This document shows, in pieces, positions 26,793 through 53,706 of a stretch of 64,000 nt of DNA (position 1 is its first letter; each line of letters begins with the position of its first letter). The translations under genes and the position numbers were made by a program. This stretch comes from an uncultured Bacillales bacterium (GTDB lineage: Bacteria; Bacillota_I; Bacilli_A; RF39; UBA660). The stretch is taken from assembly GCA_947164795.1 (NCBI GenBank), contig CAMUXV010000001.1:20580-84579 (forward strand), given 5' to 3'. The notes under the pieces are model-generated. The model was not told the DNA's origin. It did no database searches and saw only the letters and a program-made list of their open reading frames with translations.

Positions 26793-27876
26793 ATGGAACT
26801 TTATGAATTAAAAAAAGAATATGAAAATTTAGATAATAGATTAAATGATTTAAGGAGGTCTCTTTGACTTAGATAATAAGGTTAAAAGAGAAAATGAAAT
26901 AAACGAATTAATGCTTGACAGTAATTTTTGGAATGATAGTGAGATTTCTAATAAATTGGTCGGTGAACTTAAGAATATAAAAAGTGTTATTAATAGTATA
27001 AATGAATTGTCTAATGGTATTAGAGGAAATTTGGATATTGTAAATACTGATGGTGATGAAGAAATTCTTTCTATGGTGGAAGAAGAATTGCCTTTAATAA
27101 AAAATAAGATGGATAGATTAGAACTTGAAACCTATTTAAGTGGAGAATATGATAATTGTAATGCTATATTTGAAATACATGCTGGTGCTGGTGGTACGGA
27201 ATCTTGTGATTGGGCTAATATGTTATATAGAATGTATAATAGATATGCACAAAATAGTGGGTATAATTTAATAGAGCTTGATAAGCAGAATGGTGAAGAA
27301 GCAGGTATTAAGTCTGTTTTGTTTCAAATTAATGGTACTAATGTGTATGGATATTTAAAGAAAGAAAAAGGAGTACATAGACTTGTAAGAATTAGCCCAT
27401 TTGATGCCAATAAAAGAAGGCATACATCATTTGCTTCAGTAGATGTTATGCCTGAAATTGATAAAAACATTGATATCCAAATTAATGAATCCGATATCAG
27501 GGTAGATATCTATCATAGTAGTGGTCCCGGAGGACAGGGAGTTAATACTACTGATAGTGCAGTTAGAATTACTCATATTCCTACAGGTATTGTTGTTACT
27601 TGTCAGAATGAGAGAAGTCAAATTAGAAATAAAGAGAAGGCTTTAGATGTACTAAAGAATAAACTTTATTTATTGGAAATAGAAAAACAGAATGAAAAGA
27701 TTAATGGTATAAGAGGAGAACAATTAAGCAATGGATGGGGTTCGGCAAAAAGAAGTTATGTATTGTGTCCTTATACTTTAGTAAAAGATAATGATTCTGG
27801 ATATGAGTCTAGTAATGTTAATGCTATACTAGATGGTGAAATACAGGATATGATTGAGGCGGGACTTAAAAAATAA
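26793..27876 (+). CDS. prfB: peptide chain release factor 2, expressed via +1 programmed ribosomal frameshift (exon 1 26793..26864, exon 2 26866..27876)
   Basis: frame-0 ORF MELYELKKEYENLDNRLNDLRRSL ends at CTT TGA C preceded by AGGAGG 3 nt upstream (canonical prfB recoding site); downstream frame carries SPF..GGQ motif (SGPGGQGVNTTDSAVR). Confidence 0.9.
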
Positions 27877-38385: not shown

Positions 38386-38815
38386 GTTTATTATAATTAT
38401 ATAGTGATAAAATTAATATAAATTATAATTATCAATTTAAATATTAAGCAGTGGTGCAAATAATGCTACTGTTTTTTTATATAAAAAAATCTTTATATTA
38501 ACTGTAAACCAACTGATAGTAAATAGCACAATGTTTCTACAAAAAGTTATAGATTTTTCTTCAAACAGGTTATATCTTGCAATTACAGAAGATATGTGAT
38601 ATAAAAAAACAAACCACTAGGGTTTGCTTATGTCAACATTGGAGCGATTGATTAAGTTATTTCAAACTATTTCACTAATGAAAAATCAATAGTTCTATCA
38701 ATTTCTAATAATATTCTAACACAGAAATTATTTTTTGTACATATTTTTTTTAGAATTGTTTTGGCTCTACTTGACACATCATAAAAATTATTTTATTATA
38801 ATAAGCAATTTAGTG

Positions 38816-38845
38816 ACACAAATATATATGATTTGTGTTATACTA
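38816..38845 (+). promoter_or_regulatory. promoter with long inverted-repeat operator ACACAAAT-N7-ATTTGTGT overlapping -10 (TATACT)
   Basis: 8-bp perfect IR arms directly upstream of Panacea gene. Confidence 0.4.
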
Positions 38846-38870
38846 AAATTGTAATAGGGAGGATTGAAAA

Positions 38871-39386
38871 ATGAAAAAGGAGGGCATTTTTTCAGCTTTA
38901 GATTTGGCAAAATACATATGCTATATGTATTATAAAAAATATAAAAAAGATATATCTCCAATAAAATTGCAAAAATCATTATATTTTTGCTTTGCATATT
39001 GGGGTGGTTACGTACGAAAAAACAATAAAAACAAAAACTTTGTTGAAGAAAGAATTTCTTTAAGTGAATATCTATTTGATGATACATTTAAAGCTTGGGT
39101 TTATGGACCAGTAATTCCAGAAATTTTTAAAAAATATAAAAACAAAAATATTGATTATGCAGATTTAGATGTTGATTGTATTTTTGACAAAACTAATATT
39201 ACAGTAAAAGAGGCTATAGATAGTTTACTTAATGAATTGTTTGAAGTTAGTGATTTTAAACTTGTTAGTATTTCACATGAAGATGAATGCTGGAAAAATC
39301 ATTTTGATATCTTTGCAGATGATCATGATGAAGATATTCCACCAGAAGAGATAATAAATGAATATGCACTTAGGAAAACAGTTTAA
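38871..39386 (+). CDS. Panacea-domain (DUF4065, GepA/SocA-like) putative antitoxin
   Basis: KLQKSLYFCFAYWGG ... AWVYGPVIPEIF pattern characteristic of DUF4065; GGGAGGA RBS. Confidence 0.6.
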   Translation: MKKEGIFSALDLAKYICYMYYKKYKKDISPIKLQKSLYFCFAYWGGYVRKNNKNKNFVEERISLSEYLFDDTFKAWVYGPVIPEIFKKYKNKNIDYADLDVDCIFDKTNITVKEAIDSLLNELFEVSDFKLVSISHEDECWKNHFDIFADDHDEDIPPEEIINEYALRKTV

Positions 39387-39927
39387 ATCAAATCGATTTG
39401 ATAAACCTAATATTGATAAAACTAACCATATTAAAGATAGGAAAAGTTTTGGATTTGGTGAAGATATATTTGATTTTGACGATGCTTTAAAATCAGTGAA
39501 TATAAGTTGTTTGGAATTTACTAATTATTTTCATGATAGAAAAGATGTTAAATTTAAATTTGTAAAAAAAGAATATAATAGATTACTAAACCAACGAGTG
39601 AATTTAGATGATGAATATGAAATGAAAATTGTGAATACAGAGGATGGATTTAATGGATTAAAATTAAAAATGATTTATTCAGATACTTTAGGTAAAGAAG
39701 TAAGAGATTTTCCACTTATGTATAAATTAAAAAATCTCGCAAATAATGAATTGCAATTTTATGTTAAAAATGAAAATAGTAAGTATAAGGTTTGTTTTAT
39801 TGACATTTTCCATTTGGCAATACCTACCAAGCAACAAAATACAAAAGCTATGTATGAAGTTAATTCTTGTAACACATATGGACTAGATCATTTAAGAGAA
39901 GAGAAAAAGATAAAAGTATTAAATTAA
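39358..39927 (+). CDS. hypothetical protein overlapping Panacea gene by 29 nt; candidate cognate toxin
   Basis: translationally coupled downstream ORF, no recognisable family. Confidence 0.45.
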   Translation: MNMHLGKQFKSNRFDKPNIDKTNHIKDRKSFGFGEDIFDFDDALKSVNISCLEFTNYFHDRKDVKFKFVKKEYNRLLNQRVNLDDEYEMKIVNTEDGFNGLKLKMIYSDTLGKEVRDFPLMYKLKNLANNELQFYVKNENSKYKVCFIDIFHLAIPTKQQNTKAMYEVNSCNTYGLDHLREEKKIKVLN

Positions 39928-40058
39928 CATTTTTAAATTATATTGTTGACAAAACCATATATTTTAAATTATATTGGCTTGTCAACATTTTTAATTCTTA
40001 CAAAATTCAGTATTTAAGTTAATTGCTAATGCTATTTTTTTAATGATAAATATGTTTT

Positions 40059-40502
40059 TTAAAATTTATTATTACTTCTACCAAGTATATAATCAATAGA
40101 ATATTTACTATATTTTGATAAACTAATTAATATCTCACAATTAATTAGTTTTTCTCCTCTTTCATAACTACCAAGAGATGAAAAAGAACAATTTAAAGCA
40201 TTACCTAAACTTCTTAATGATAGTCCTAATTCTTTTCTTATTTCTTTTAATCTATTACCAATAAGTTCTAAATCTAAAGTATAAGTTTCTTCAATATTTT
40301 TTCTTATATCTGTAAGTTTTAGCATATAATCTATATTAACATTATAGAAGTTAGCTAACTCTGCTATTCTTCTAGTAGGAATAGGAATTTTATTATGTTC
40401 CCATTCAGAATAAGTAGATTCATTAACACCAAAATAACTTGCTACTTCTCTTGATTTTAAATTTCTTTCCACTTTTAAATCTTCTAAACGATTCTCATTC
40501 AT
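40059..40502 (-). CDS. XRE-family repressor with two tandem HTH domains (phage cI-like)
   Basis: two HTH_XRE units (LKSREVASYFGVNESTYSEWE.. and LRSLGNALNCSFSSLGSYERG..). Confidence 0.8.
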   Translation of the reverse strand: MNENRLEDLKVERNLKSREVASYFGVNESTYSEWEHNKIPIPTRRIAELANFYNVNIDYMLKLTDIRKNIEETYTLDLELIGNRLKEIRKELGLSLRSLGNALNCSFSSLGSYERGEKLINCEILISLSKYSKYSIDYILGRSNNKF

Positions 40503-40570
40503 CTACATCACCTATACAATTATATTTTCCCATTTAAATAGTTAATATTAATAAAACTTCTCTAAATACG

Positions 40571-40588
40571 CACAATTTGTGATATAAT
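40571..40588 (+). promoter_or_regulatory. divergent promoter with palindromic operator CACAATTTGTG fused to -10 GATATAAT
   Basis: 11-bp palindrome in repressor/40594 intergenic region. Confidence 0.4.
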
Positions 40589-40593
40589 TATTT

Positions 40594-40911
40594 ATGAAGA
40601 GAGGAGATAAAATCGTGATAAATGAAAGTAAGAAAGATTATTTAAATGAGAAAGTAATACAATTAAGTATTTTAAAAAATATAGAGTATCAAAATCAAAT
40701 AATAAACTCTATTAATACAAGAATAAAATTTTATAGAACTTTGTTAAATCATCTAGAAGATTCTAAACCATTATTCTTTCAAAAGAAGAAGTTGATTGAG
40801 TATAGTAATAAAATAAAAGAATATAATGATAAGATAGATGCATTATATATTGAATTAGATGACGAACTGCTATCAGTAACTGACAATTGTAGTGATTATA
40901 TTATAATTTAA
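40594..40911 (+). CDS. small coiled-coil protein divergent from repressor (cro/antirepressor position; probable GTG start 40615)
   Basis: GAGGAG RBS inside annotated ORF 8 nt before in-frame GTG. Confidence 0.4.
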   Translation: MKRGDKIVINESKKDYLNEKVIQLSILKNIEYQNQIINSINTRIKFYRTLLNHLEDSKPLFFQKKKLIEYSNKIKEYNDKIDALYIELDDELLSVTDNCSDYIII

Positions 40912-41097
40912 TTGCTTATAAACAACACCTCAGTATTAATAAATGAATTGCGAATATAAAAACTGTATAGTTTCATATTGTCATTATTATTTCTTTATGA
41001 TAGAATCTTATTGTAAGAAAAAAGAAAAATTATATTAAGAAAAGAAATAATATTATTTTTTAAATATTTTATAATAATAAGTGGAAGAAGGGTTATA

Positions 41098-41559
41098 ATG
41101 AATAATTTAAAAATATTAAAACCAGAATTTGAAGTATATTATATAACTGAAGTTGGAAATTCTATTAAGGGAACGATAAATAATGTTCCTGATAATGCTT
41201 TTGGTGCTTTTATTGATATTTATTTACCTTATATGACAAAAGATAATAAAAACTATGCACTAGGTGAACATCATATGATTATGATAGGAACAAAATTATC
41301 TGTAAAACAGGCTTTAAAAATAACTAAAAACGATGATGCTAAAAGAAGGCTTACTTATTTAAATAAAAGAGTTGACGATATTATAGATGTAATATATCCA
41401 AATATTTTTTCTAATGATGATATTGCAATATCAAATGATTTTTATCCCTTTTATTCAAATTATGTTGTATGTAATTCAAATGAAATATTTAAAGAACAAT
41501 TAGATATGTCTTTTGTTCGATATAATGAATTGGTGGAAATAATTGATAAACTATCATAA
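41098..41559 (+). CDS. hypothetical protein (153 aa)
   Basis: ORF with no family. Confidence 0.4.
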   Translation: MNNLKILKPEFEVYYITEVGNSIKGTINNVPDNAFGAFIDIYLPYMTKDNKNYALGEHHMIMIGTKLSVKQALKITKNDDAKRRLTYLNKRVDDIIDVIYPNIFSNDDIAISNDFYPFYSNYVVCNSNEIFKEQLDMSFVRYNELVEIIDKLS

Positions 41560-41583
41560 TAAAAAATATTGAGGTGATGAGTA

Positions 41584-42846
41584 GTGAAAGAAAAAGTAAA
41601 AAATGAAAAACCGTTATATACAATTGAAAGTATTATTGATGGTGATGAATATAAAAAAATGGCTAGATATTTTCCTCAAATGTATTGGGCCTATGTTATA
41701 TACGGGACAATATTAAATTTGTTTTTTTCTTTGTTGATAGCAGTTTTCTCTGAAAGCCTAATTTTTACATTGATTTTTTTAGTACTTTATCAATCATACA
41801 TAATGATACTTTATAAAATCAGATTAGAGCACTATGCTGAAAAATCTTTTAATAGAATGGTAAAAAAAGGCAGAATAGATACAGAGGTCCATTCTGAATT
41901 TTATAATGACTTTTTTATAAGACAAAGTGAAACCGTAGCATATAAGATTAAATATATTGATATTGATAGATGTGTTGAAACTGATTCGAGTTTTTATTTA
42001 AAATATGGGAAAAAGAATATAATAATTATTATTCAAAAAAATGAATGTGATTTAGAATTAATTAATTTTATCCGAGAAAAATTTAATAATTTAGAAAAGC
42101 ATATTGGTGATAATTCCAATTTTAAAGGTGTAAAAAAATATAATAATCCTTCCTTTATTAAAAATTTTATGATTATATTATTTGCTTTAACAATATCAAG
42201 TTTATGGGGAGCACTATATTCAATGAACTTAGTTAGCGAAATAATACCACAACATGGATTTAATTTCACTAAAAATAATTGGGTATTCTGGTGTTGGTTA
42301 CCGATTCCAATACTTTCTATCATTCTTGGCTTTAAATATAAAAGTGCAGGTTTTAAATGTACAAAAAATGTAGTAAGTGGCTTTATAATAGGATTTTTAC
42401 TATTAATATATGGATCTTTTTGTTTGCTTCCAACATTTTCACAAGAGTATGATAAGATAAATGATTACAAAGATATAATAAATGCAAAAATACCAGAAAA
42501 GGGCGAACTTGAAATACAAAATTGGGGAACATATTTTGATGAGGATAAGACAAACTATACTATCATAAATGCCTACTATGACAAAGAAGATGTTGGTGAT
42601 TTAGTAAGTAGTATTAAAAATAACAATAATTGGATTTTAAGCAAAGAAATAAAATCCGAATTAAAGACTTTGATACCATCACAACTTAAATCTGATGATG
42701 ATGCATATTTTTCTATTTATAATAAAACTGCAAATAAATACAATTCCTTACCTGAAGAATCAGGTGAATATGAAGTATATGCCATGAAATATGATGAGTC
42801 TGATAAACATTTAGAAATACATAAGTTTAATTTATTGTATAAATAA
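41584..42846 (+). CDS. hypothetical polytopic membrane protein (420 aa; 2 TM + cytoplasmic module + 4 TM + C-terminal soluble domain)
   Basis: hydrophobicity pattern; RBS GAGGTGATGA. Confidence 0.5.
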   Translation: MKEKVKNEKPLYTIESIIDGDEYKKMARYFPQMYWAYVIYGTILNLFFSLLIAVFSESLIFTLIFLVLYQSYIMILYKIRLEHYAEKSFNRMVKKGRIDTEVHSEFYNDFFIRQSETVAYKIKYIDIDRCVETDSSFYLKYGKKNIIIIIQKNECDLELINFIREKFNNLEKHIGDNSNFKGVKKYNNPSFIKNFMIILFALTISSLWGALYSMNLVSEIIPQHGFNFTKNNWVFWCWLPIPILSIILGFKYKSAGFKCTKNVVSGFIIGFLLLIYGSFCLLPTFSQEYDKINDYKDIINAKIPEKGELEIQNWGTYFDEDKTNYTIINAYYDKEDVGDLVSSIKNNNNWILSKEIKSELKTLIPSQLKSDDDAYFSIYNKTANKYNSLPEESGEYEVYAMKYDESDKHLEIHKFNLLYK

Positions 42847-42877
42847 ATATAAATTATATATTAAGAAGGAGTATAAG

Positions 42878-43537
42878 ATGGTTAAAGAAAAACAAAATCC
42901 TAAAGAATGGGAAATAGGTGACACATTCTATTATCAAGCTAAGGATTATAATAAAGAATTAAATTGTAAGTATATAATTTTTATTAAATCAGGAATAGTT
43001 AATAATGCACCTCTATTTAGAGTAAAAGTGACTAAAGATAGTAAATTACCGCGGACAATAGAAGAATTAGAAAGTATAGATTATGCTAGAACTGGGCTTG
43101 TTATATGGGAAAGCAGATTTCTACCACTTGATGGAAATATACCAGATAGACAGTTAATACTTGAAAGAAATAAAGTTAAATTTTATCCTGATGAAAATGG
43201 ATTTTTATATATTTATCAAGTTTCAATAGATATAAAGTCTAAGAGAAGTATACCAAAGGAGTGGGGATATTTAGGTAAATTTGATTTATCTCTTCCAAAA
43301 GACGAATTTATCCCATTCAGTTTAGGAAATATTTGGGGATTTATATGGAACATTGGTAAAAATTGGTTTTTTGATAGACTTTTAATGTATAATAGCGAGA
43401 AAAAAGAATATATTGAACATGCTAAAAAAAGAAGAGTACAGGAAATTGGCGCTATGAAATTGATTTTATCTTATAATTCTAGAAACTCAAAAGAAGAAGT
43501 AGATGAACTAATGGATATTATAACTGCTGTTAAGTAA
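42878..43537 (+). CDS. hypothetical protein (219 aa)
   Basis: RBS AAGGAG; no family. Confidence 0.45.
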   Translation: MVKEKQNPKEWEIGDTFYYQAKDYNKELNCKYIIFIKSGIVNNAPLFRVKVTKDSKLPRTIEELESIDYARTGLVIWESRFLPLDGNIPDRQLILERNKVKFYPDENGFLYIYQVSIDIKSKRSIPKEWGYLGKFDLSLPKDEFIPFSLGNIWGFIWNIGKNWFFDRLLMYNSEKKEYIEHAKKRRVQEIGAMKLILSYNSRNSKEEVDELMDIITAVK

Positions 43538-43610
43538 ATTTTATATGGTATTATCTTTAAAGATAGTAAATTACTTTTGTTTTTGTAATTATGGAGAGGA
43601 GGATTAATTT

Positions 43611-44105
43611 ATGAAGAAAAGTAATGTGATTATAATTTGTATATTAGTAGTAATTATTATTTGTTTAATTGGAGGGCTATTTTATTTAAATAATTATTAT
43701 GTAAATCAAATAGATTATATATTCTATACAACAAAAGTAGATGAAACAAAAAGTAAGGAATATGATTGTAGTTTTACTAAAACATACAGGGTGGTAAATT
43801 TATTAGATGGTTATATTGATGAGGTTCCAGACTGGTCTTATATAATATTAGATCAATTTCAAAATCATAGTGCTATAGCTATTAGAATACCATCATTATT
43901 GAAAAATAAATTACAAGAAAACAAATATTATGAATTTACTTATACCATTAAAGGTAGTGATAAAATCATTAGCACGATGGAAGATATTAATAAATATTTA
44001 GTGTTAGATGAAAGTACTGCTGATTTAAAAGTAACATTAAATATAAAAGAAACGGACAAACAAGGATTAGAGCAGGTACAAGAAAATATATGTTTGCCTA
44101 AATAA
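43611..44105 (+). CDS. membrane-anchored protein sharing C-terminal domain with regulator 36714..37787
   Basis: N-terminal TM; C-terminal HSAIAIRI..YYEFTYTIK..NIKETDKQGLEQVQEN vs GDTAMVRI..NYEFTFINY..DIKETDRVGLEQVNES. Confidence 0.5.
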   Translation: MKKSNVIIICILVVIIICLIGGLFYLNNYYVNQIDYIFYTTKVDETKSKEYDCSFTKTYRVVNLLDGYIDEVPDWSYIILDQFQNHSAIAIRIPSLLKNKLQENKYYEFTYTIKGSDKIISTMEDINKYLVLDESTADLKVTLNIKETDKQGLEQVQENICLPK

Positions 44106-44117
44106 AGGAGAGATGAT

Positions 44118-44471
44118 ATGTATAATTTTTCTTTACTAAAAAATGAAAAAGTAATTGACGTGTTTGATGATATATGGGTTAGTCAAAATGAAAATGAGAA
44201 GATGACAACAGTGGCTTTAACAAATCAAAGATTATTATTTTTAGATTATAATAATAATGATCCACGAGATAATTTAAGAATTGGTAGAGGCATGGAATAC
44301 ATAAGATATAAAGAAGTTTATCATTCAATAATGTTGCAAGATATCAAAGATGTAACTGACGTTTATATTCTTAATTTAAAAAAAGGCTGTGATATTAAAT
44401 TTGATAATGAGGAATTATGTAATCTCATAAAAAAAGAAATCAAAAATGTTGCTAATGATAATGCTAGTTAA
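44118..44471 (+). CDS. hypothetical protein (117 aa)
   Basis: RBS AAGGAGAG; no family. Confidence 0.4.
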   Translation: MYNFSLLKNEKVIDVFDDIWVSQNENEKMTTVALTNQRLLFLDYNNNDPRDNLRIGRGMEYIRYKEVYHSIMLQDIKDVTDVYILNLKKGCDIKFDNEELCNLIKKEIKNVANDNAS

Positions 44472-44573
44472 ATAAGAAATAATGATTGAATAGAGAAATC
44501 TATTCTTTTTATTATTTAAAAGAGAAGAAATTATTGCGAAGATCAACAACAAAGAACAAAAGAAATAACAGAT

Positions 44574-44631
44574 TTGACAAGAACAAACATTTGTGCTATT
44601 ATAATTCTCATCTCAGTGAGGGGGAAAAGAA
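44574..44631 (+). promoter_or_regulatory. promoter cassette P1: TTGACA-17-TGCTATTAT with palindromic operator ACAAACATTTGT in spacer, AGGGGGAA RBS
   Basis: near-identical to cassettes at 45092 and 46080. Confidence 0.55.
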
Positions 44632-45042
44632 ATGAATAATAACATGGAATTTAAGATTAATTATGCAAATATGAGATCAATTATTTCTAACTATTTTAAG
44701 TCTCAAGGAAGAGATGTAACTGTTACTATTAGTTCTAACATTGACACAGATAGATTTAAGGGAACAGTTGACACAATAGTTACTGTGTACGAAAAAGTAA
44801 TTATTGCTGGTGTTGAAACAACTACAAAGAAAATACTTTGGCTTGATGATTTAAAGGAAATTATAAGCGAATCATTATCGCAAGAAAATAAAGAACTAAT
44901 TGACTTAACAAGTGATGCATATTCTTACACGTCAGTAGAAGGTGCATATATGGGAGAATATAGAGAAACTAAAATTGGTGGAAAGACTTTTACAGTCACT
45001 GTAAAAGAAAAACAAAATGTTAAAATGAAAGAATTAAAATAA
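44632..45042 (+). CDS. hypothetical protein (136 aa)
   Basis: ORF directly behind cassette P1. Confidence 0.45.
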   Translation: MNNNMEFKINYANMRSIISNYFKSQGRDVTVTISSNIDTDRFKGTVDTIVTVYEKVIIAGVETTTKKILWLDDLKEIISESLSQENKELIDLTSDAYSYTSVEGAYMGEYRETKIGGKTFTVTVKEKQNVKMKELK

Positions 45043-45091
45043 GCAAATGATTACAATTTATCATAATGTACAAAATATTAAAATTTTGTAT

Positions 45092-45144
45092 TTGGCAAAA
45101 CAAATATTTGTGCTATTATATGGCACGTTTTAGGGGGAATATAT
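45092..45144 (+). promoter_or_regulatory. promoter cassette P2: TTGGCA / perfect palindrome ACAAATATTTGT / TGCTATTAT / AGGGGGAA
   Basis: read from sequence. Confidence 0.55.
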
Positions 45145-45957
45145 ATGAATATGAATTATTTAGTTTTATGGATAGGAACAATTATTGGTAGTTTTGGAGC
45201 AGAATTAGTGAATGAACTTAGAATGTTTAAGGATATTGCGGATGCAGGATACAAAGTTGATTTGCAAAAAATGGCAGATTTTCAAAAAAAATTGATGCCT
45301 GATGCAAATAAGGTAAATCTTTTATCGATGTTGATACCTGTATATAACATTATGAATGTTTGCAAAAATATAATTAATTATAATAATGTTAGACCAATGC
45401 TATTAGATCAATTAAATGTAATGGGAGTGCTAGAAGAAATGTCTTCATATGAAAAAGAAGAATATTCAAAAAAACCAACTGCTTTAAATGCATTTATAAT
45501 TCCATTAAAGACAGAAATAAAACTTGCAAATGCTCTTAAATTAACAACAACTGATGATAATGGAACAAACATATATTATATTGATTACAATAAAAAGAAA
45601 GGTTTTACTTTGTTAAAGGTTGATGGTCCAGACTCTATGCTGCCTTTTGAGGAACAAGAGAAAAGAGCTAAGGAAAAGATGTATAATCTTGGTAAACATG
45701 TAAGAGATAATTATGGCACTGCTGAAAATTATTTAAAATCTCTTGATAATAATTCGAAAGAATTTCAAGAAGAAGGAAATATAGTTGTACCTACTAAAGC
45801 TGAGTTAAACAATGATGAAATAAAAGAAGAAACAAAACAAACTCAAATAGCAGTAGAACAAAAAGAAGAAGTTCAAGCAAATGAGTTAGAAGAAACGAAT
45901 ATAGAAGATAATACTATTCATAAACCATTAATAAGAACTAGAAAAATTAAAAGGTAA
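45145..45957 (+). CDS. hypothetical protein (270 aa), N-terminal hydrophobic helix, E/K-rich C-terminus
   Basis: ORF directly behind cassette P2. Confidence 0.45.
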   Translation: MNMNYLVLWIGTIIGSFGAELVNELRMFKDIADAGYKVDLQKMADFQKKLMPDANKVNLLSMLIPVYNIMNVCKNIINYNNVRPMLLDQLNVMGVLEEMSSYEKEEYSKKPTALNAFIIPLKTEIKLANALKLTTTDDNGTNIYYIDYNKKKGFTLLKVDGPDSMLPFEEQEKRAKEKMYNLGKHVRDNYGTAENYLKSLDNNSKEFQEEGNIVVPTKAELNNDEIKEETKQTQIAVEQKEEVQANELEETNIEDNTIHKPLIRTRKIKR

Positions 45958-46079
45958 TATCTAATACGGAAATATAGAAAAAACTATATTTCTTTTTTTA
46001 TAATTTTTTATCAAAAGAATATTATTAAAGAGTTTTAGATTATTTTAGTATAAGATTTTTGTTTAAAATTTTGTTTGAT

Positions 46080-46132
46080 TTGACAAAAGCAAACATTTGT
46101 GCTATTATATTTCTCGTTTAAGGGGGAATACT
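46080..46132 (+). promoter_or_regulatory. promoter cassette P3: TTGACA / GCAAACATTTGTGC / TATTAT / AAGGGGGAA
   Basis: read from sequence. Confidence 0.55.
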
Positions 46133-46960
46133 ATGTTTATTGAAAATCTTTATTTGGAAATAACAAGGAATTGTAATCTAGAATGTGAACATTGTTTAAG
46201 AGGAGATAGTAAGAATGAATATATGTCATCTCAAACAATAAATAATATTTTCAAAGATATAAAAGGAATTGATAGATTATTGCTAACTGGTGGAGAACCA
46301 TTGCTCGCCATTAACCAGATAAAGGAAATTATAAGTATAATTAAAACTAATAATATTAAAATTAATAGTATTATGTTAATAACTAATGGTACAATTTTAA
46401 ATGAAAATGTTATAGAAACATTAAAAGAGTTATCAAGTATTTCAGTTTTACACTTAAGATTGTCATATGATATGTTTCATTTTTTAGAATTAAATAGGTT
46501 GAAATTATTTGATATAAGAGTTAAAAATGCAATAGTTTTTAAAGAATTGTTTAATGCCTTAGATTATGCCAGTTTTGATGATACATCGTTTTCAAACAAA
46601 AAGGTTATTATGCCTATTGGTAGAGCTTTAAAACTATCTAGTGAAAGACTTGAGGAAATAAATAATATGTCTGATTCTAAATACTCATTATCTGAATATT
46701 GCGTTGAGAAAAATCCTTGGAGTTCGTTTAATGCTAGTTACAATTTATTTAATTATGTTGTAGATGGAACAATAAGTATAGATGTTAATAGTAATGTTGT
46801 TGCTTATAGTTTACCATTTGATGATGAAGATGCTGAAAAGTTGAAATACAATTCTAATATCAACGAAATAGGATTATCTCGAGCGATATTAAATTATATT
46901 GAATACTATGAAGAATTACGTGATCATATGTATAAAAGCTTAGGTTTAAGACTAAAGTGA
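46133..46960 (+). CDS. small radical-SAM protein (single CxxxCxxC cluster, no SPASM/twitch cysteines)
   Basis: LEITRNCNLECEHCL ... LLLTGGEPLL motifs; only one further Cys in protein; start at cassette-backed ATG 46133. Confidence 0.7.
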   Translation: MFIENLYLEITRNCNLECEHCLRGDSKNEYMSSQTINNIFKDIKGIDRLLLTGGEPLLAINQIKEIISIIKTNNIKINSIMLITNGTILNENVIETLKELSSISVLHLRLSYDMFHFLELNRLKLFDIRVKNAIVFKELFNALDYASFDDTSFSNKKVIMPIGRALKLSSERLEEINNMSDSKYSLSEYCVEKNPWSSFNASYNLFNYVVDGTISIDVNSNVVAYSLPFDDEDAEKLKYNSNINEIGLSRAILNYIEYYEELRDHMYKSLGLRLK

Positions 46961-47136
46961 TAATTATTTTTTAATAAATTTGTAAAAGTTTTAATAATAA
47001 TTATTTAAAATTTTAATTAATAACCAATAAATAAGCAAAAGGAAGAGTGAAAACTCTTCCTTTTGAAATACTTCTACCAAGTGTATAAATACACTTGCAA
47101 CAATCTAAAGTAACTTTATTATACCATTTTTAGTAG

Positions 47137-47955
47137 CTATGTCAATACTTTTTGACGATTTTCTTTAGATTTTGAATTGGAGTTTGTTTGTGTTTTTGTC
47201 ATTTTAATTTCTTCAAAAGCATAATATTTTTTGATTATTTTAAGGATTTCATCATTATCTTTTTTACTAATCGTGGCTATTTTATTATTAATAAAATATG
47301 GTTCTTTTATTCTATTGGCACTTATATTAATTAAGTTTTCTATTCTTGCAGTACCTAATTTTTCATCTTTCAAATCATGGTGAAAATAATAATTATCATC
47401 TTTATGCTTTGAAGTAAGTGGTATTGCAGTCCACATTTTTTTATTTGATGAACTTCTCCATAATATTGCAGGTCTTAATTTTCTAAGTTCATTACCAATA
47501 TTATATCCTAAATTAACCCAGCATATTGCACCAACTTTAAGATTAGTAAGTGTATTATCTTTATTTATTAATTCTAGCTTATCTTTACACCATTTATTAT
47601 ATGATATTCCATCTGGATCATTATTTGTATTATCTTTGACATATTTTAAAAAATTATCTTTTGATTTTAAAAGTATTTCATCAAATTCTTTATTAGTTAT
47701 TTTTAATGGTTTACCTTTTATATAAATACATCTTTTAATATTAGTTCTATTATAGTCATTTATTTCATTAAATGAGGCATATTTATTAATTGATTTAAGA
47801 TATATGCTATCTTTTCTATTATCATTATAAATAGATATCCCTACATAGTGATTTTGAGAAATATCATAGAGAATTAAAATCCATTGCACATTTTCATTTA
47901 TACTAACTTCATATACTTGTTTCCAATTAATTGTAAGCATATTTTTTATCACCAA
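47137..47955 (-). CDS. MazF/PemK-like toxin domain fused to ~135-aa N-terminal unknown domain
   Basis: KVGAICWVNLGYNIGNELRKLRPAILWRSS...WTAIPLTSKH aligns with PemK/MazF core (GdIvwvdfdP..G.E..k.RPavVvS..vcPiTs). Confidence 0.55.
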   Translation of the reverse strand: MVIKNMLTINWKQVYEVSINENVQWILILYDISQNHYVGISIYNDNRKDSIYLKSINKYASFNEINDYNRTNIKRCIYIKGKPLKITNKEFDEILLKSKDNFLKYVKDNTNNDPDGISYNKWCKDKLELINKDNTLTNLKVGAICWVNLGYNIGNELRKLRPAILWRSSSNKKMWTAIPLTSKHKDDNYYFHHDLKDEKLGTARIENLINISANRIKEPYFINNKIATISKKDNDEILKIIKKYYAFEEIKMTKTQTNSNSKSKENRQKVLT

Positions 47956-49609: not shown

Positions 49610-51631
<2,022 letters not shown>

Positions 51632-52328: not shown

Positions 52329-52483
52329 ATCAGTAGGCATAATTAATGATACTATACTTTTCTTTGTTTGTCAACTGTCTTTCGAGCGTTTTTTGTTAAA
52401 ATTTACATTTTTATCGGTGTTTGTAAGTAAATATACTATTACTATATTGAAATATTTTAAAATAATGTTATAATTAAGTTACA

Positions 52484-52606
52484 TCTTATAAAGAGTGATG
52501 GAGGGACTAGCCCTATGAAGTCACACCAACCTATTAGATTAGGTGGTAATGCTAGATCTATAAGGTAACTTTTTTCTGCTCAAGAGTTATCTTGGGTATT
52601 TTTTAT
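52484..52606 (+). ncRNA. SAM-I (S-box) riboswitch with intrinsic terminator, leader of metK
   Basis: TCTTATAAAGAGTGATGGAGGGACTAGCCCTATGAAGTCACACCAACC matches S-box core (AUCAAGAG.GG.GGAGGGA.UGGCCC.AUGAA.CC.GCAACC); terminator CAAGA-GTTA-TCTTG + T-run. Confidence 0.7.
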
Positions 52607-52680
52607 TATAAGATGTAGGAAGGAGTATATTTATGTAGATAGTTTCTTATTACTTATAATGAAAAGGAAAGGAGTTAAAA

Positions 52681-53706
52681 ATGAAATTATATAGTAATGA
52701 AATTGTTTTTAGGGGTCATCCTGATAAGGTATGTGATCAGATTAGTGATGCCTTATTAGATGTATATTTGAAAGGTGATAAAAATAGTAGGTGTGGTATA
52801 GAAGTAGCAGGGGGTAAAGGTAAGATATTTATAACTGGAGAAGTTACTAGTAGTATTATGGTTGATACTGAAAGTATAGTCAAAAGAGTTCTTTCTGATA
52901 TTGGATATAGTACTGATTATGAAATAATTGATAATATTGGTAAACAAAGCTCTGATATTGCTCTTGGTACTAATATGAAAGTAGGAGGGGCTGGAGATAA
53001 TGGTATGATGTTTGGATATGCCTGCAGGGATACTAAAGAATTACTTCCTACTGCTATGGTGATATTACAAAAACTTAGTATGTGGTATGATGAACTTAGA
53101 AAGAAAGATAAGAGATTTTTACCTGATGGTAAAGCACAAATTACTGGGTTATATGATAACTATAATAAACTAATTAAAATTAAGACTTTTACGGTTTGCT
53201 ATCAAAATAGGGAGGATGATAGAGAAAAGACTGATAAGATTATTATGGATAAGTGTAGGTCTATTTGTGGTGAATATGGAATAAATATAGAAAAATTTTT
53301 AATTAATCCGACTGGTAGATTTTATATTGGTGGATTTGAAGGGGATGCTGGTCTTACTGGTAGAAAGATAGTAGTGGATAGTTATCAGTCTTTTGCTCCT
53401 GTTGGAGGAGGTGCTTTTTCAGGAAAGGATCCGTCTAAAGTAGATAGAAGTGGTGCTTATAAAGCTAGAGAGATTGCTAAAAGAATTCTTTTATCTAATG
53501 ATAATTATAAATGGTGCCAGGTACAAATTTCTTATGCTATTGGTAAAGAAAAACCTCTTGCTATTTATATTGAAACGGATAGGGGTAGTATTAAAGTAGA
53601 TGATAGTTTGTATGAAGAATGTAAGCCTAGAATTATTATTAATGATTTAAAATTACTAGATGTCTGCTATGAAGAAAAAGCTAGATTTGGTCATTTTAGA
53701 GATTAA
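52681..53706 (+). CDS. metK: S-adenosylmethionine synthetase (compact, 341 aa)
   Basis: GHPDKVCDQISDALLD, GAGDNGMMFGYA, GGGAFSGKDPSKVDRSGAY signatures. Confidence 0.9.
   Translation: MKLYSNEIVFRGHPDKVCDQISDALLDVYLKGDKNSRCGIEVAGGKGKIFITGEVTSSIMVDTESIVKRVLSDIGYSTDYEIIDNIGKQSSDIALGTNMKVGGAGDNGMMFGYACRDTKELLPTAMVILQKLSMWYDELRKKDKRFLPDGKAQITGLYDNYNKLIKIKTFTVCYQNREDDREKTDKIIMDKCRSICGEYGINIEKFLINPTGRFYIGGFEGDAGLTGRKIVVDSYQSFAPVGGGAFSGKDPSKVDRSGAYKAREIAKRILLSNDNYKWCQVQISYAIGKEKPLAIYIETDRGSIKVDDSLYEECKPRIIINDLKLLDVCYEEKARFGHFRD

Follow-up and report, generated by a model that had tools for sequence, protein, structure and literature searches.

The morons of temperate phages, as described by Hendrix and colleagues, are autonomous promoter-gene-terminator units that lie between backbone genes, and plasmids and phages offer well-known examples of repeated promoter/operator units. 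Regulons with repeated operators include those of the KorA/KorB operators of RK2, the omega sites of pSM19035, the C1 operators of P1 and the ACAA-N6-TTGT operators of 434. The -16 TRTG motif is an established element of Gram-positive sigma-A promoters, as stated in a passage of PMC6570832 that cites Voskuil and Chambliss. Integrative mobilizable elements (IMEs) that combine a serine recombinase with a MobV/Mob_Pre relaxase have been described for Firmicutes (PMC5704250, PMC5357655). Here we analysed a 64-kb stretch of DNA from an uncultured Bacillales bacterium (contig CAMUXV010000001.1; the whole stretch is called the window), in which three tandem genes on an island of the IME kind each follow a near-identical cassette of about 55 bp. 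With moderate confidence, we regard these cassettes as paralogous strong sigma-A promoter/ribosome-binding-site units that were copied from the second gene and that turn the three genes into moron-like units on an IME.

The three genes and their cassettes (c1, c2 and c3 stand for the cassettes before genes 1, 2 and 3) all lie on the plus strand:

44571..44631, plus strand: cassette 1, with -35 box TTGACA (44574-79), 17-nt spacer, -10 box TATTAT (44597-602), Shine-Dalgarno (SD) sequence GGGGG (44620-24) and the ATG at 44632
44583-94, plus strand: imperfect palindrome ACAAACATTTGT in the spacer of cassette 1, with the TGTG -16 motif at 44592-95
44632..45042, plus strand: gene 1, 136 aa, of a small uncharacterised family
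45088..45144, plus strand: cassette 2, with -35 box TTGGCA (45092-97), 16-nt spacer, -10 box TATTAT (45114-19), SD GGGGG (45133-37) and the ATG at 45145
45100-111, plus strand: perfect palindrome ACAAATATTTGT in the spacer of cassette 2
45145..45957, plus strand: gene 2, 270 aa, with N-terminal hydrophobic segments, a conserved core and a charged tail
46077..46132, plus strand: cassette 3, with -35 box TTGACA (46080-85), 17-nt spacer, -10 box TATTAT (46103-08), SD GGGGG (46122-26) and the ATG at 46133
46089-100, plus strand: GCAAACATTTGT in the spacer of cassette 3
46133..46960, plus strand: gene 3, 275 aa, a minimal radical S-adenosylmethionine (radical-SAM, rSAM) enzyme with CxxxCxxC (C14, C18, C21) and a GGEP motif

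The cassette was found upstream of all three ATGs (44632, 45145 and 46133), exactly where the original prediction, an earlier reading of the letters alone, had placed it. The 20-mer CAAAYATTTGTGCTATTATA, whose Y position counts C or T as a match, is common to the three cassettes (44584, 45101 and 46090, each 20/20) and occurs exactly three times in the 64 kb. Further copies, for which a search had been proposed, were found neither in the window, where up to three mismatches in the 20-mer were allowed, nor in the flanks of the sister loci described below. A 30-mer spanning the -35 box matched c1 and c3 with one mismatch each (0.00 expected), and a repeat finder returned a single 46-nt family, in which c1 and c3 are 87% and c1 and c2 67% identical without gaps. 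In a MAFFT alignment of the three upstream regions, which had also been suggested, the likeness starts about 10-25 nt upstream of the -35 box, runs through the leader and stops at the ATG, and the coding sequences of genes 1, 2 and 3 are mutually unrelated.

That this similarity reflects chance in low-complexity A+T-rich sequence, or the remnant of a tandemly duplicated gene fragment, is already refuted. It is true that the region has about 25% G+C and that promoter-like hexamer pairs are no commoner here than in shuffled sequence. But three full matches of the 20-mer stand against 0.12 expected by chance (at least three were reached in 0/100 shuffles), the similarity covers 46-55 nt with the leader included, and every cassette copy has been kept in the sister islands. 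Duplication of a gene fragment, which the original prediction had named as the case that would undo it, is excluded because the likeness does not pass the ATG and the three proteins have no relation to one another.

The cassettes have the anatomy of strong sigma-A promoters. Each carries TGTGc directly before TATTAT (an extended -10), a leader of about 20-30 nt and GGGGG 6-7 nt before the ATG. The -35 and -10 hexamers agree with the consensus at 11/12 (c1), 10/12 (c2) and 11/12 (c3) positions, the TG of the extended -10 is present in each, and the spacers of 17, 16 and 17 lie within the 16-18 bp that join a TTGACA-like -35 to a TATAAT-like -10. TRTG takes up the predicted places -17 to -14, immediately before the -10 box, as TGTGcTATTAT, in 3/3 cassettes. 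The pattern TRTGnTAnnnT has 18 sites in the window, mostly right upstream of open reading frames (ORFs), and by these positions the TGTGnTATTAT part is a general promoter pattern of the host genome. We read the cassettes as paralogous near-consensus sigma-A promoter and ribosome-site units, in which promoter activity and transcription starts are predicted. The most degenerate copy is c2, the odd one of the three with its weaker -35 box TTGGCA and a spacer one base shorter, and in sister islands it is mutated further (ACACAT, CATTAT). No Rfam family matched the leaders or the segment 44400-47300, and the leaders have no common structure.

The original prediction had seen an operator, ACAAA(c/t)ATTTGT, in each spacer. 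A site of this kind does lie in all three spacers, but the 12-bp palindrome is perfect only in c2; that of c1 is mismatched at its centre, and that of c3, with GCAAAC as its left part, departs from ACAAAY. Since the right arm TTTGTG contains the TRTG -16 element, it is explained by promoter function. Twelve cassette variants from the window, one sister island and solo gene 2 loci were compared (ten tabulated, two c2 copies read from alignments), and the right arm with TRTG was the sole invariant block. The left arm (GCAAA in c3, ACACA in sister-island c2), the centre and the -35 and -10 boxes all vary, and about 8 nt (CAAAYAT plus one T) are left unaccounted for by promoter function. A scan of 185,579 species genomes with the 20-mer gave 29 single hits, near a rough chance estimate. 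These were gene 2 orthologues and unrelated strong promoters, L10-leader promoters included, and about a dozen had a hexamer like the -35 box at the right spacing. Two of these, in Acutalibacteraceae genomes, pair the 20-mer with a well-spaced TTGACA and stand before a ribosomal L10 leader, so the sequence is compatible with an ordinary strong housekeeping promoter. A metagenome scan with the 20-mer plus the -35 box gave six hits, of which 3/6 were gene 2 orthologues. By these distributions the cassette does not look like the mark of a widespread regulon.

The origin of the cassette is best seen from gene 2. Its hydrophobic segments, judged by eye to be transmembrane, indicate that the product is probably a membrane-anchored protein. 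The family is widespread (more than 228 clusters) in metagenome-assembled genomes of uncultured Bacilli ('Bacilli bacterium') and has 41 invariant columns in 38 sequences; no Pfam family or PDB relative was found for it. Close orthologues (72-90% amino acid identity) are solo chromosomal genes with the same cassette, leader included, and lie by tyrS (L003, L057), upstream of prfA (L003, L019, L052), by dnaG (L048) and at L051. These solo loci match the window only over 45076/84-46003/67, that is, over cassette 2, gene 2 and its terminator, with 83-90% identity. The solo cassettes are closer to c1 and c3 than to c2, and cassette 1 of the sister locus L043 shares the upstream GAAATGTTAGATTTGACAAGAA with the solo gene 2 promoters and is nearly identical to them over about 60 nt. 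More distant gene 2 homologues (44-47% amino acid identity) have other promoters and no palindrome, and the rSAM homologues of other loci lie behind TRTG or -10 promoters of their own, with no cassette. By this distribution, the gene 2 family has the cassette as its native promoter in a clade of uncultured Bacilli. Its presence before solo chromosomal gene 2 orthologues makes these the probable source of the copies at genes 1 and 3, which most likely arose by recombination within the element.

Gene 2 family members, noted in the window and at loci L003, L006, L009, L019, L048 and L057, were met repeatedly near tyrS. Horizontal transfer of gene 2, once considered from a prfA identity of 72-75%, was withdrawn: the ORF at 26911-27876 is RF-2-like, with 43% amino acid identity to RF-1 of L003, and the blastn match to prfA was a match to a paralogue, a caution for identity-based comparisons. 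The window and the solo gene 2 loci share no orthologous core gene, and the case for mobility is made by the comparison of the island with Tex given below.

Three predicted hairpins bear on how the genes would be transcribed:

45068..45091, plus strand: weak A/U-only hairpin between gene 1 and cassette 2; -8.5 kcal/mol over a 61-nt stretch, z -1.4
45968..46000, plus strand: intrinsic terminator after gene 2; stem of 10 bp with a U7 tail, -9.0 kcal/mol, z -3.6
47036..47065, no single strand: strong terminator with a 13-bp stem, ending gene 3 and convergent minus-strand transcription; z -5.3

The claim that each gene is independently transcribable holds in part. A promoter is predicted for each of genes 1-3, and the terminators after genes 2 and 3 make these separate transcription units, but gene 1 has no convincing terminator behind it, so cassette 1 is likely to drive read-through into gene 2. 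Expression from the cassettes would probably be high and largely constitutive, with transcripts from cassette 1 probably running on into gene 2. Such read-through would relax selection on cassette 2 and may explain its decay; gene 3, insulated by the terminator before it, would depend on cassette 3. In the sister islands gene 1 begins with ATA in place of ATG (about position 10000 of L043, and the same site in L044-L047), with a later ATG that gives 132 aa, and the -10 box of cassette 1 is TATTGT in L043-L047; both are signs of slightly weakened gene 1 expression there.

The genes lie on an island with the following further parts:

38601..44560, no single strand: variable left cargo, with a SocA/Panacea gene, an XRE double helix-turn-helix (HTH) gene (40059-40502), a YcxB-like gene and others; replaced in the sister islands
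47137..47955, minus strand: backbone gene for a PemK/MazF-like domain (residues 140-243) fused to an N-terminal domain; conserved in L043-L046
47983..49326, minus strand: backbone gene for a Mob_Pre/MobV-type relaxase (PF01076, 54 bits); kept in the sister islands
49610..51616, minus strand: backbone gene for a large serine recombinase with Resolvase, Recombinase and Zn_ribbon_recom domains; kept in L043 and L045
52255..52328, minus strand: tRNA-Gly(UCC), adjoining the island on its recombinase side and still within the L043-shared block (end at 52356)

All three genes, with their cassettes and in the same order, recur at five sister loci (L043-L047). These loci match the window at 93-95% identity over a block that begins at 44561, 10 nt ahead of cassette 1, and reaches 52356 at most. 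The flanking core is more diverged (Tex 78.6% at the nucleotide and 80% at the amino acid level, other flanks 68-74%), and the block is therefore mobile, since it is more conserved than the chromosome around it. The left cargo of the sisters consists of three other ORFs with no Pfam or HTH match, and the segment 38601-38723 is common to the window and the sister loci L044 and L045 at 85% identity. A 9-bp direct repeat, CATTGGAGC, lies at 38637-45, near the left end of the island, and at 52252-60, at the 3' end of the tRNA-Gly gene, and is a possible att core. The relaxase reached 27.5 bits with the NCBIfam MobV model, below the cut-off of 100. No type IV secretion system or conjugation-pore family was found among the ORFs scanned, a scan that covered part of the ORFs. 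Judged from its genes, by which it is known here, the island is composed like the integrative mobilizable elements known from Firmicutes, and by the start of the shared block the three cassette genes are the first part of its conserved backbone. The idea that they are an element's payload is borne out by the recombinase, the relaxase and the sister islands, which mark them as cargo of a mobile element. The cassettes would make these three unrelated cargo genes moron-like expression units at the start of the conserved IME backbone. A blastn search with 44480-47000 against annotated plasmids and phages gave no match, tblastn of gene 2 and the rSAM protein against phages and of the rSAM protein against plasmids gave nothing useful, and scans of viral contigs for gene 1, the rSAM gene and the 20-mer found no relatives.

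For gene 1, no Pfam, NCBIfam, PADLOC or PHROG family was found, and its own family has 29 representatives at E<=0.001. The protein is predicted to adopt an alpha/beta fold (pLDDT 91), and the model has no PDB or BFVD fold match at E<=0.001 and the sequence no PDB match; the predicted fold is thus a confident one without a known relative. Its N-terminal 30-45 residues match 11-16 repeated stretches in the giant proteins P0258 and P0259 (1259 and 4421 aa), which suggests a small repeat-forming domain. The remote-homology searches that had been proposed for the 136-aa and 270-aa proteins therefore ended without a PDB or Pfam relative for either.

Gene 3 proved to be a minimal radical-SAM enzyme, as had been stated, by PF04055, by its CxxxCxxC motif and by a confident model (pLDDT 94; TM about 0.5 to the generic core of the SPASM/twitch/viperin/MoaA clade). 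Its further invariant residues are H20, R23, S111, H116 and G163, and C14, C18 and C21 are its only invariant cysteines. The family comprises about 100 clusters. PF04055 covers residues 9-109 only, only the first 100 or so residues match any model, and all NCBIfam hits are far below their cut-offs. From these features gene 3 is a single-cluster radical-SAM enzyme outside every named subfamily. A prokaryotic viperin was rejected (NF038283, 45 bits against a cut-off of 180, residues 10-103 only); the hits of the PADLOC pVip models are likewise partial and take in only about the first 100 model positions. A maturase of ribosomally synthesised and post-translationally modified peptides (RiPPs) was rejected too, since gene 3 has no PF13186 SPASM domain, no auxiliary-cluster cysteines, no precursor gene and no conserved neighbour; the examined rSAM homologues stand alone among unrelated genes, and of the RiPP-like function once offered for the locus there is no sign. 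A 287-aa ORF that starts with TTG at 46097 is an artefact whose start lies inside the promoter; the real start is the ATG at 46133.

Several points weigh against the cassettes being plain promoters copied from gene 2. Promoter activity and transcription start sites are what we infer from the sequence, and the direction of copying, from the gene 2 promoter to genes 1 and 3, is deduced from the distribution of the cassette. The left arm ACAAA varies about as little as the -35 and -10 hexamers and less than the 3-4 nt immediately upstream. The 12-nt spacer core is 10-12/12 identical, as compared with 70-90% at four-fold degenerate sites of the orthologues; this excess would fit an added constraint such as an operator, although it comes from very few substitutions and a rough Poisson estimate (P ~0.1) is not significant. 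ACAA/TTGT half-sites are typical of 434-type XRE repressors, and the island promoters at 38834 and 40578 bear inverted repeats built on CACAA/TTGTG. One of these is CACAAAT-N7-ATTTGTGtTATACT at 38824-38846, before the Panacea gene, and the other is CACAAtTTGTGaTATAAT (CACAAtTTGTG) at 40571-40588, in the region divergent from the XRE gene, where it is a plausible candidate for an XRE autoregulatory site; both sit on the same TTTGTG -16 motif. The conserved left arm and spacer core, the half-sites and these repeats would suit a true operator, in which the imperfect palindrome ACAAA-YA-TTTGT, centred at about -23 and placed between the -35 and -10 boxes in an ideal position for steric repression, would let one repressor, possibly the double-HTH XRE protein of the island or a host-encoded XRE-type protein, occlude all three promoters and give coordinated inducible expression. 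We consider this possible but doubtful. The right arm is already accounted for by the TRTG element, the palindrome is perfect in only 1/3 copies, with GCAA in c3 and ACAC in sister-island c2, and the strong coordinated repression by one DNA-binding protein that was formerly proposed does not follow from such a site. The XRE gene 40059-40502, which had been put forward as the repressor, belongs to the variable part of the island and is missing from the five sister islands that keep all the cassettes, so it is no conserved partner; no HTH protein was detected in its place in their left cargo, and no cognate DNA-binding protein is conserved beside the sites. At solo gene 2 loci the cassette occurs with no island around it, and no XRE gene was detected there; the palindrome is missing from distant gene 2 homologues, and no other motif copies were seen around the sister loci. 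The arms of the three kinds of island inverted repeat are spaced by N2, N1 and N7, and hence fit one dimeric binder poorly. Among the sites known to us (NrdR box, LexA/Cheo box, CodY, Rex, Spo0A box and 434 operator), none fits the palindrome.

Two further explanations concern the modules and not the spacer. The cassettes might be portable homology linkers, recombination between copies of which inserts, swaps and captures modules, a role that is compatible with promoter function. This would account for module boundaries that fall at cassette edges: the solo gene 2 match (45076/84-46003/67) begins near cassette 2 (45088) and ends short of cassette 3 (46077), the junction of variable cargo and backbone lies just upstream of cassette 1, and cassette 1 of L043 is nearly identical to a solo gene 2 promoter. 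We nevertheless find it unlikely, because 45-55 bp offers little homology for RecA-dependent exchange, the same three genes occur in the same order in 5/5 sister islands with no shuffling observed, each copy has diverged separately without a trace of gene conversion, and selection of whole transcription units would by itself place boundaries at promoters. Genes 1-3 might instead form one rSAM-centred functional system, anti-phage or nucleotide/peptide-modifying, in which the shared cassette matches the amounts of the products. The order of the trio is conserved in six islands, it lies on a mobile element beside toxin-like genes, the rSAM protein combines partial pVip hits with a viperin-like core (TM 0.53), and a neighbour of a 54%-identical rSAM protein has marginal N-terminal similarity to gene 2. 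But the islands are only 5-7% diverged, and the conserved order is therefore of little weight; the viperin equivalog score is a quarter of its cut-off, and neither gene 1 nor gene 2 has a PADLOC hit. When profiles of the three families were run against all loci examined, the families occurred together only in this island family, with gene 2 and rSAM homologues solo elsewhere, so there is no evidence for one functional system. The neighbours of four other rSAM homologues (loci including L055, L056 and L058) are unrelated, bar the marginal N-terminal likeness to gene 2 in L001 (BLASTP E 0.008, hhalign probability 13%, N-terminal-domain HMM E 0.02), and a conserved gene 2-rSAM pairing was rejected. 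A single system is thus quite improbable in our view. Its most specific form has even less to commend it: an unrecognised three-part accessory system on IMEs of uncultured gut Bacilli, with a small new-fold protein, a membrane protein and a minimal single-cluster rSAM enzyme, that would make or modify a small molecule or nucleotide, perhaps to defend against phages or competitors, and would be silenced by a host XRE-type repressor at ACAAA-N2-TTTGT.

Some observations were made beside these subjects. On the minus strand at 47028-47145, the 3' end of the PemK-like ORF coincides in part with a sigma-A promoter that is perfect at 12/12 hexamer positions and has the TG as well (TTGACA, 16 nt, TGgTATAAT); the 13-bp G+C-rich terminator lies about 45 nt downstream of this promoter. 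The predicted transcript of about 80 nt folds into two hairpins (-27.4 kcal/mol, z -6.0; no Rfam match). We regard it as a candidate small RNA that would be transcribed towards gene 3 from within the conserved backbone of the island. The PemK-like protein has an N-terminal region of about 135 aa without an assigned function and no separate antitoxin gene adjacent to it, and a PHROG annotated as 'antitoxin mazE-like' matches its residues 97-200. In the variable cargo (38871-39927) a 189-aa ORF without a family begins inside the SocA/Panacea-domain gene (171 aa), and the pair is possibly a toxin-antitoxin system of the Panacea type. Just outside the island, at 52483-53706, a 341-aa ORF with about 40% identity to a gene for the SAM synthetase MetK in L009 is preceded by a SAM riboswitch that scores 65 bits.

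With copying from gene 2 as the favoured reading, the locus illustrates promoter "copy and paste" cleanly in a natural mobile element: one strong promoter/ribosome-site unit, apparently from a conserved chromosomal gene, now stands before three unrelated cargo genes. Current concepts are unchanged by these findings. Three unannotated protein families of uncultured gut-type Bacilli have been flagged, of which the gene 2 family may merit separate study, and the cassette could serve as a compact strong expression part for low-GC Firmicutes. Were the palindrome an operator after all, the host gene and the IME would share a small regulon.

As compared with described systems, the island resembles the IMEs of Firmicutes in its large serine recombinase, its single Mob_Pre relaxase, its location at a tRNA gene and the lack of detected conjugation-pore genes among the ORFs scanned, as well as in its variable cargo, its conservation above that of the flanking chromosome and its presence in different genomes and contexts. 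It differs in its host, an uncultured low-GC Bacilli lineage, and in cargo that consists of three uncharacterised genes and not of resistance or bacteriocin genes. The rSAM protein shares the CxxxCxxC triad, the GGEP SAM-binding motif and a partial TIM-barrel core with the viperin-like, MoaA-like and SPASM/twitch rSAM enzymes, its best structural matches being SuiB, anSME, viperin, EpeE/YydG, SkfB and MoaA (E 1e-7 to 1e-4). Unlike viperin, MoaA and the SPASM enzymes, it has no auxiliary-cluster cysteines, its equivalog scores are far below the cut-offs, and no conserved substrate or partner gene lies nearby.

The cassettes are like Gram-positive -16 TRTG promoters in that TGTGcTATTAT fits TRTGnTATAAT and is joined to a consensus -35 box by a 17-bp spacer, and the same architecture is found at many host promoters in the window. 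Most of these host promoters, however, lack a good -35 box, whereas the cassettes combine both elements and also share spacer and leader sequence by common descent. With the repeated-operator regulons they have in common a short inverted repeat inside several promoters of one mobile element, and their ACAA/TTGT half-sites resemble 434-type XRE operators. They differ from those regulons in that the sites have no conserved cognate DNA-binding protein and that half of the repeat is a promoter element, and from the 434 operator in having N4 between ACAA and TTGT and in being known from sequence alone.

The closest likeness is to the morons. A promoter is predicted for every gene and a terminator for genes 2 and 3, all three are accessory genes carried by a mobile element, and the gene 2 unit is a self-contained module found in different genomic contexts. 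The element that carries them, however, is an IME instead of a prophage, one paralogous promoter cassette serves all three units, and single units show no presence/absence polymorphism among the sister islands; occurrence in other contexts, as for a moron, is seen for the gene 2 unit, and the gene 1 and gene 3 units occur solely inside the island. The statement in the original prediction that this is not a known operon layout was overstated, since promoter-gene-terminator is the layout of a moron and repeated promoter/operator units are known. From its sequence the cassette trio is best read as belonging to known kinds of arrangement, a tidy but ordinary way to express cargo and no new layout.

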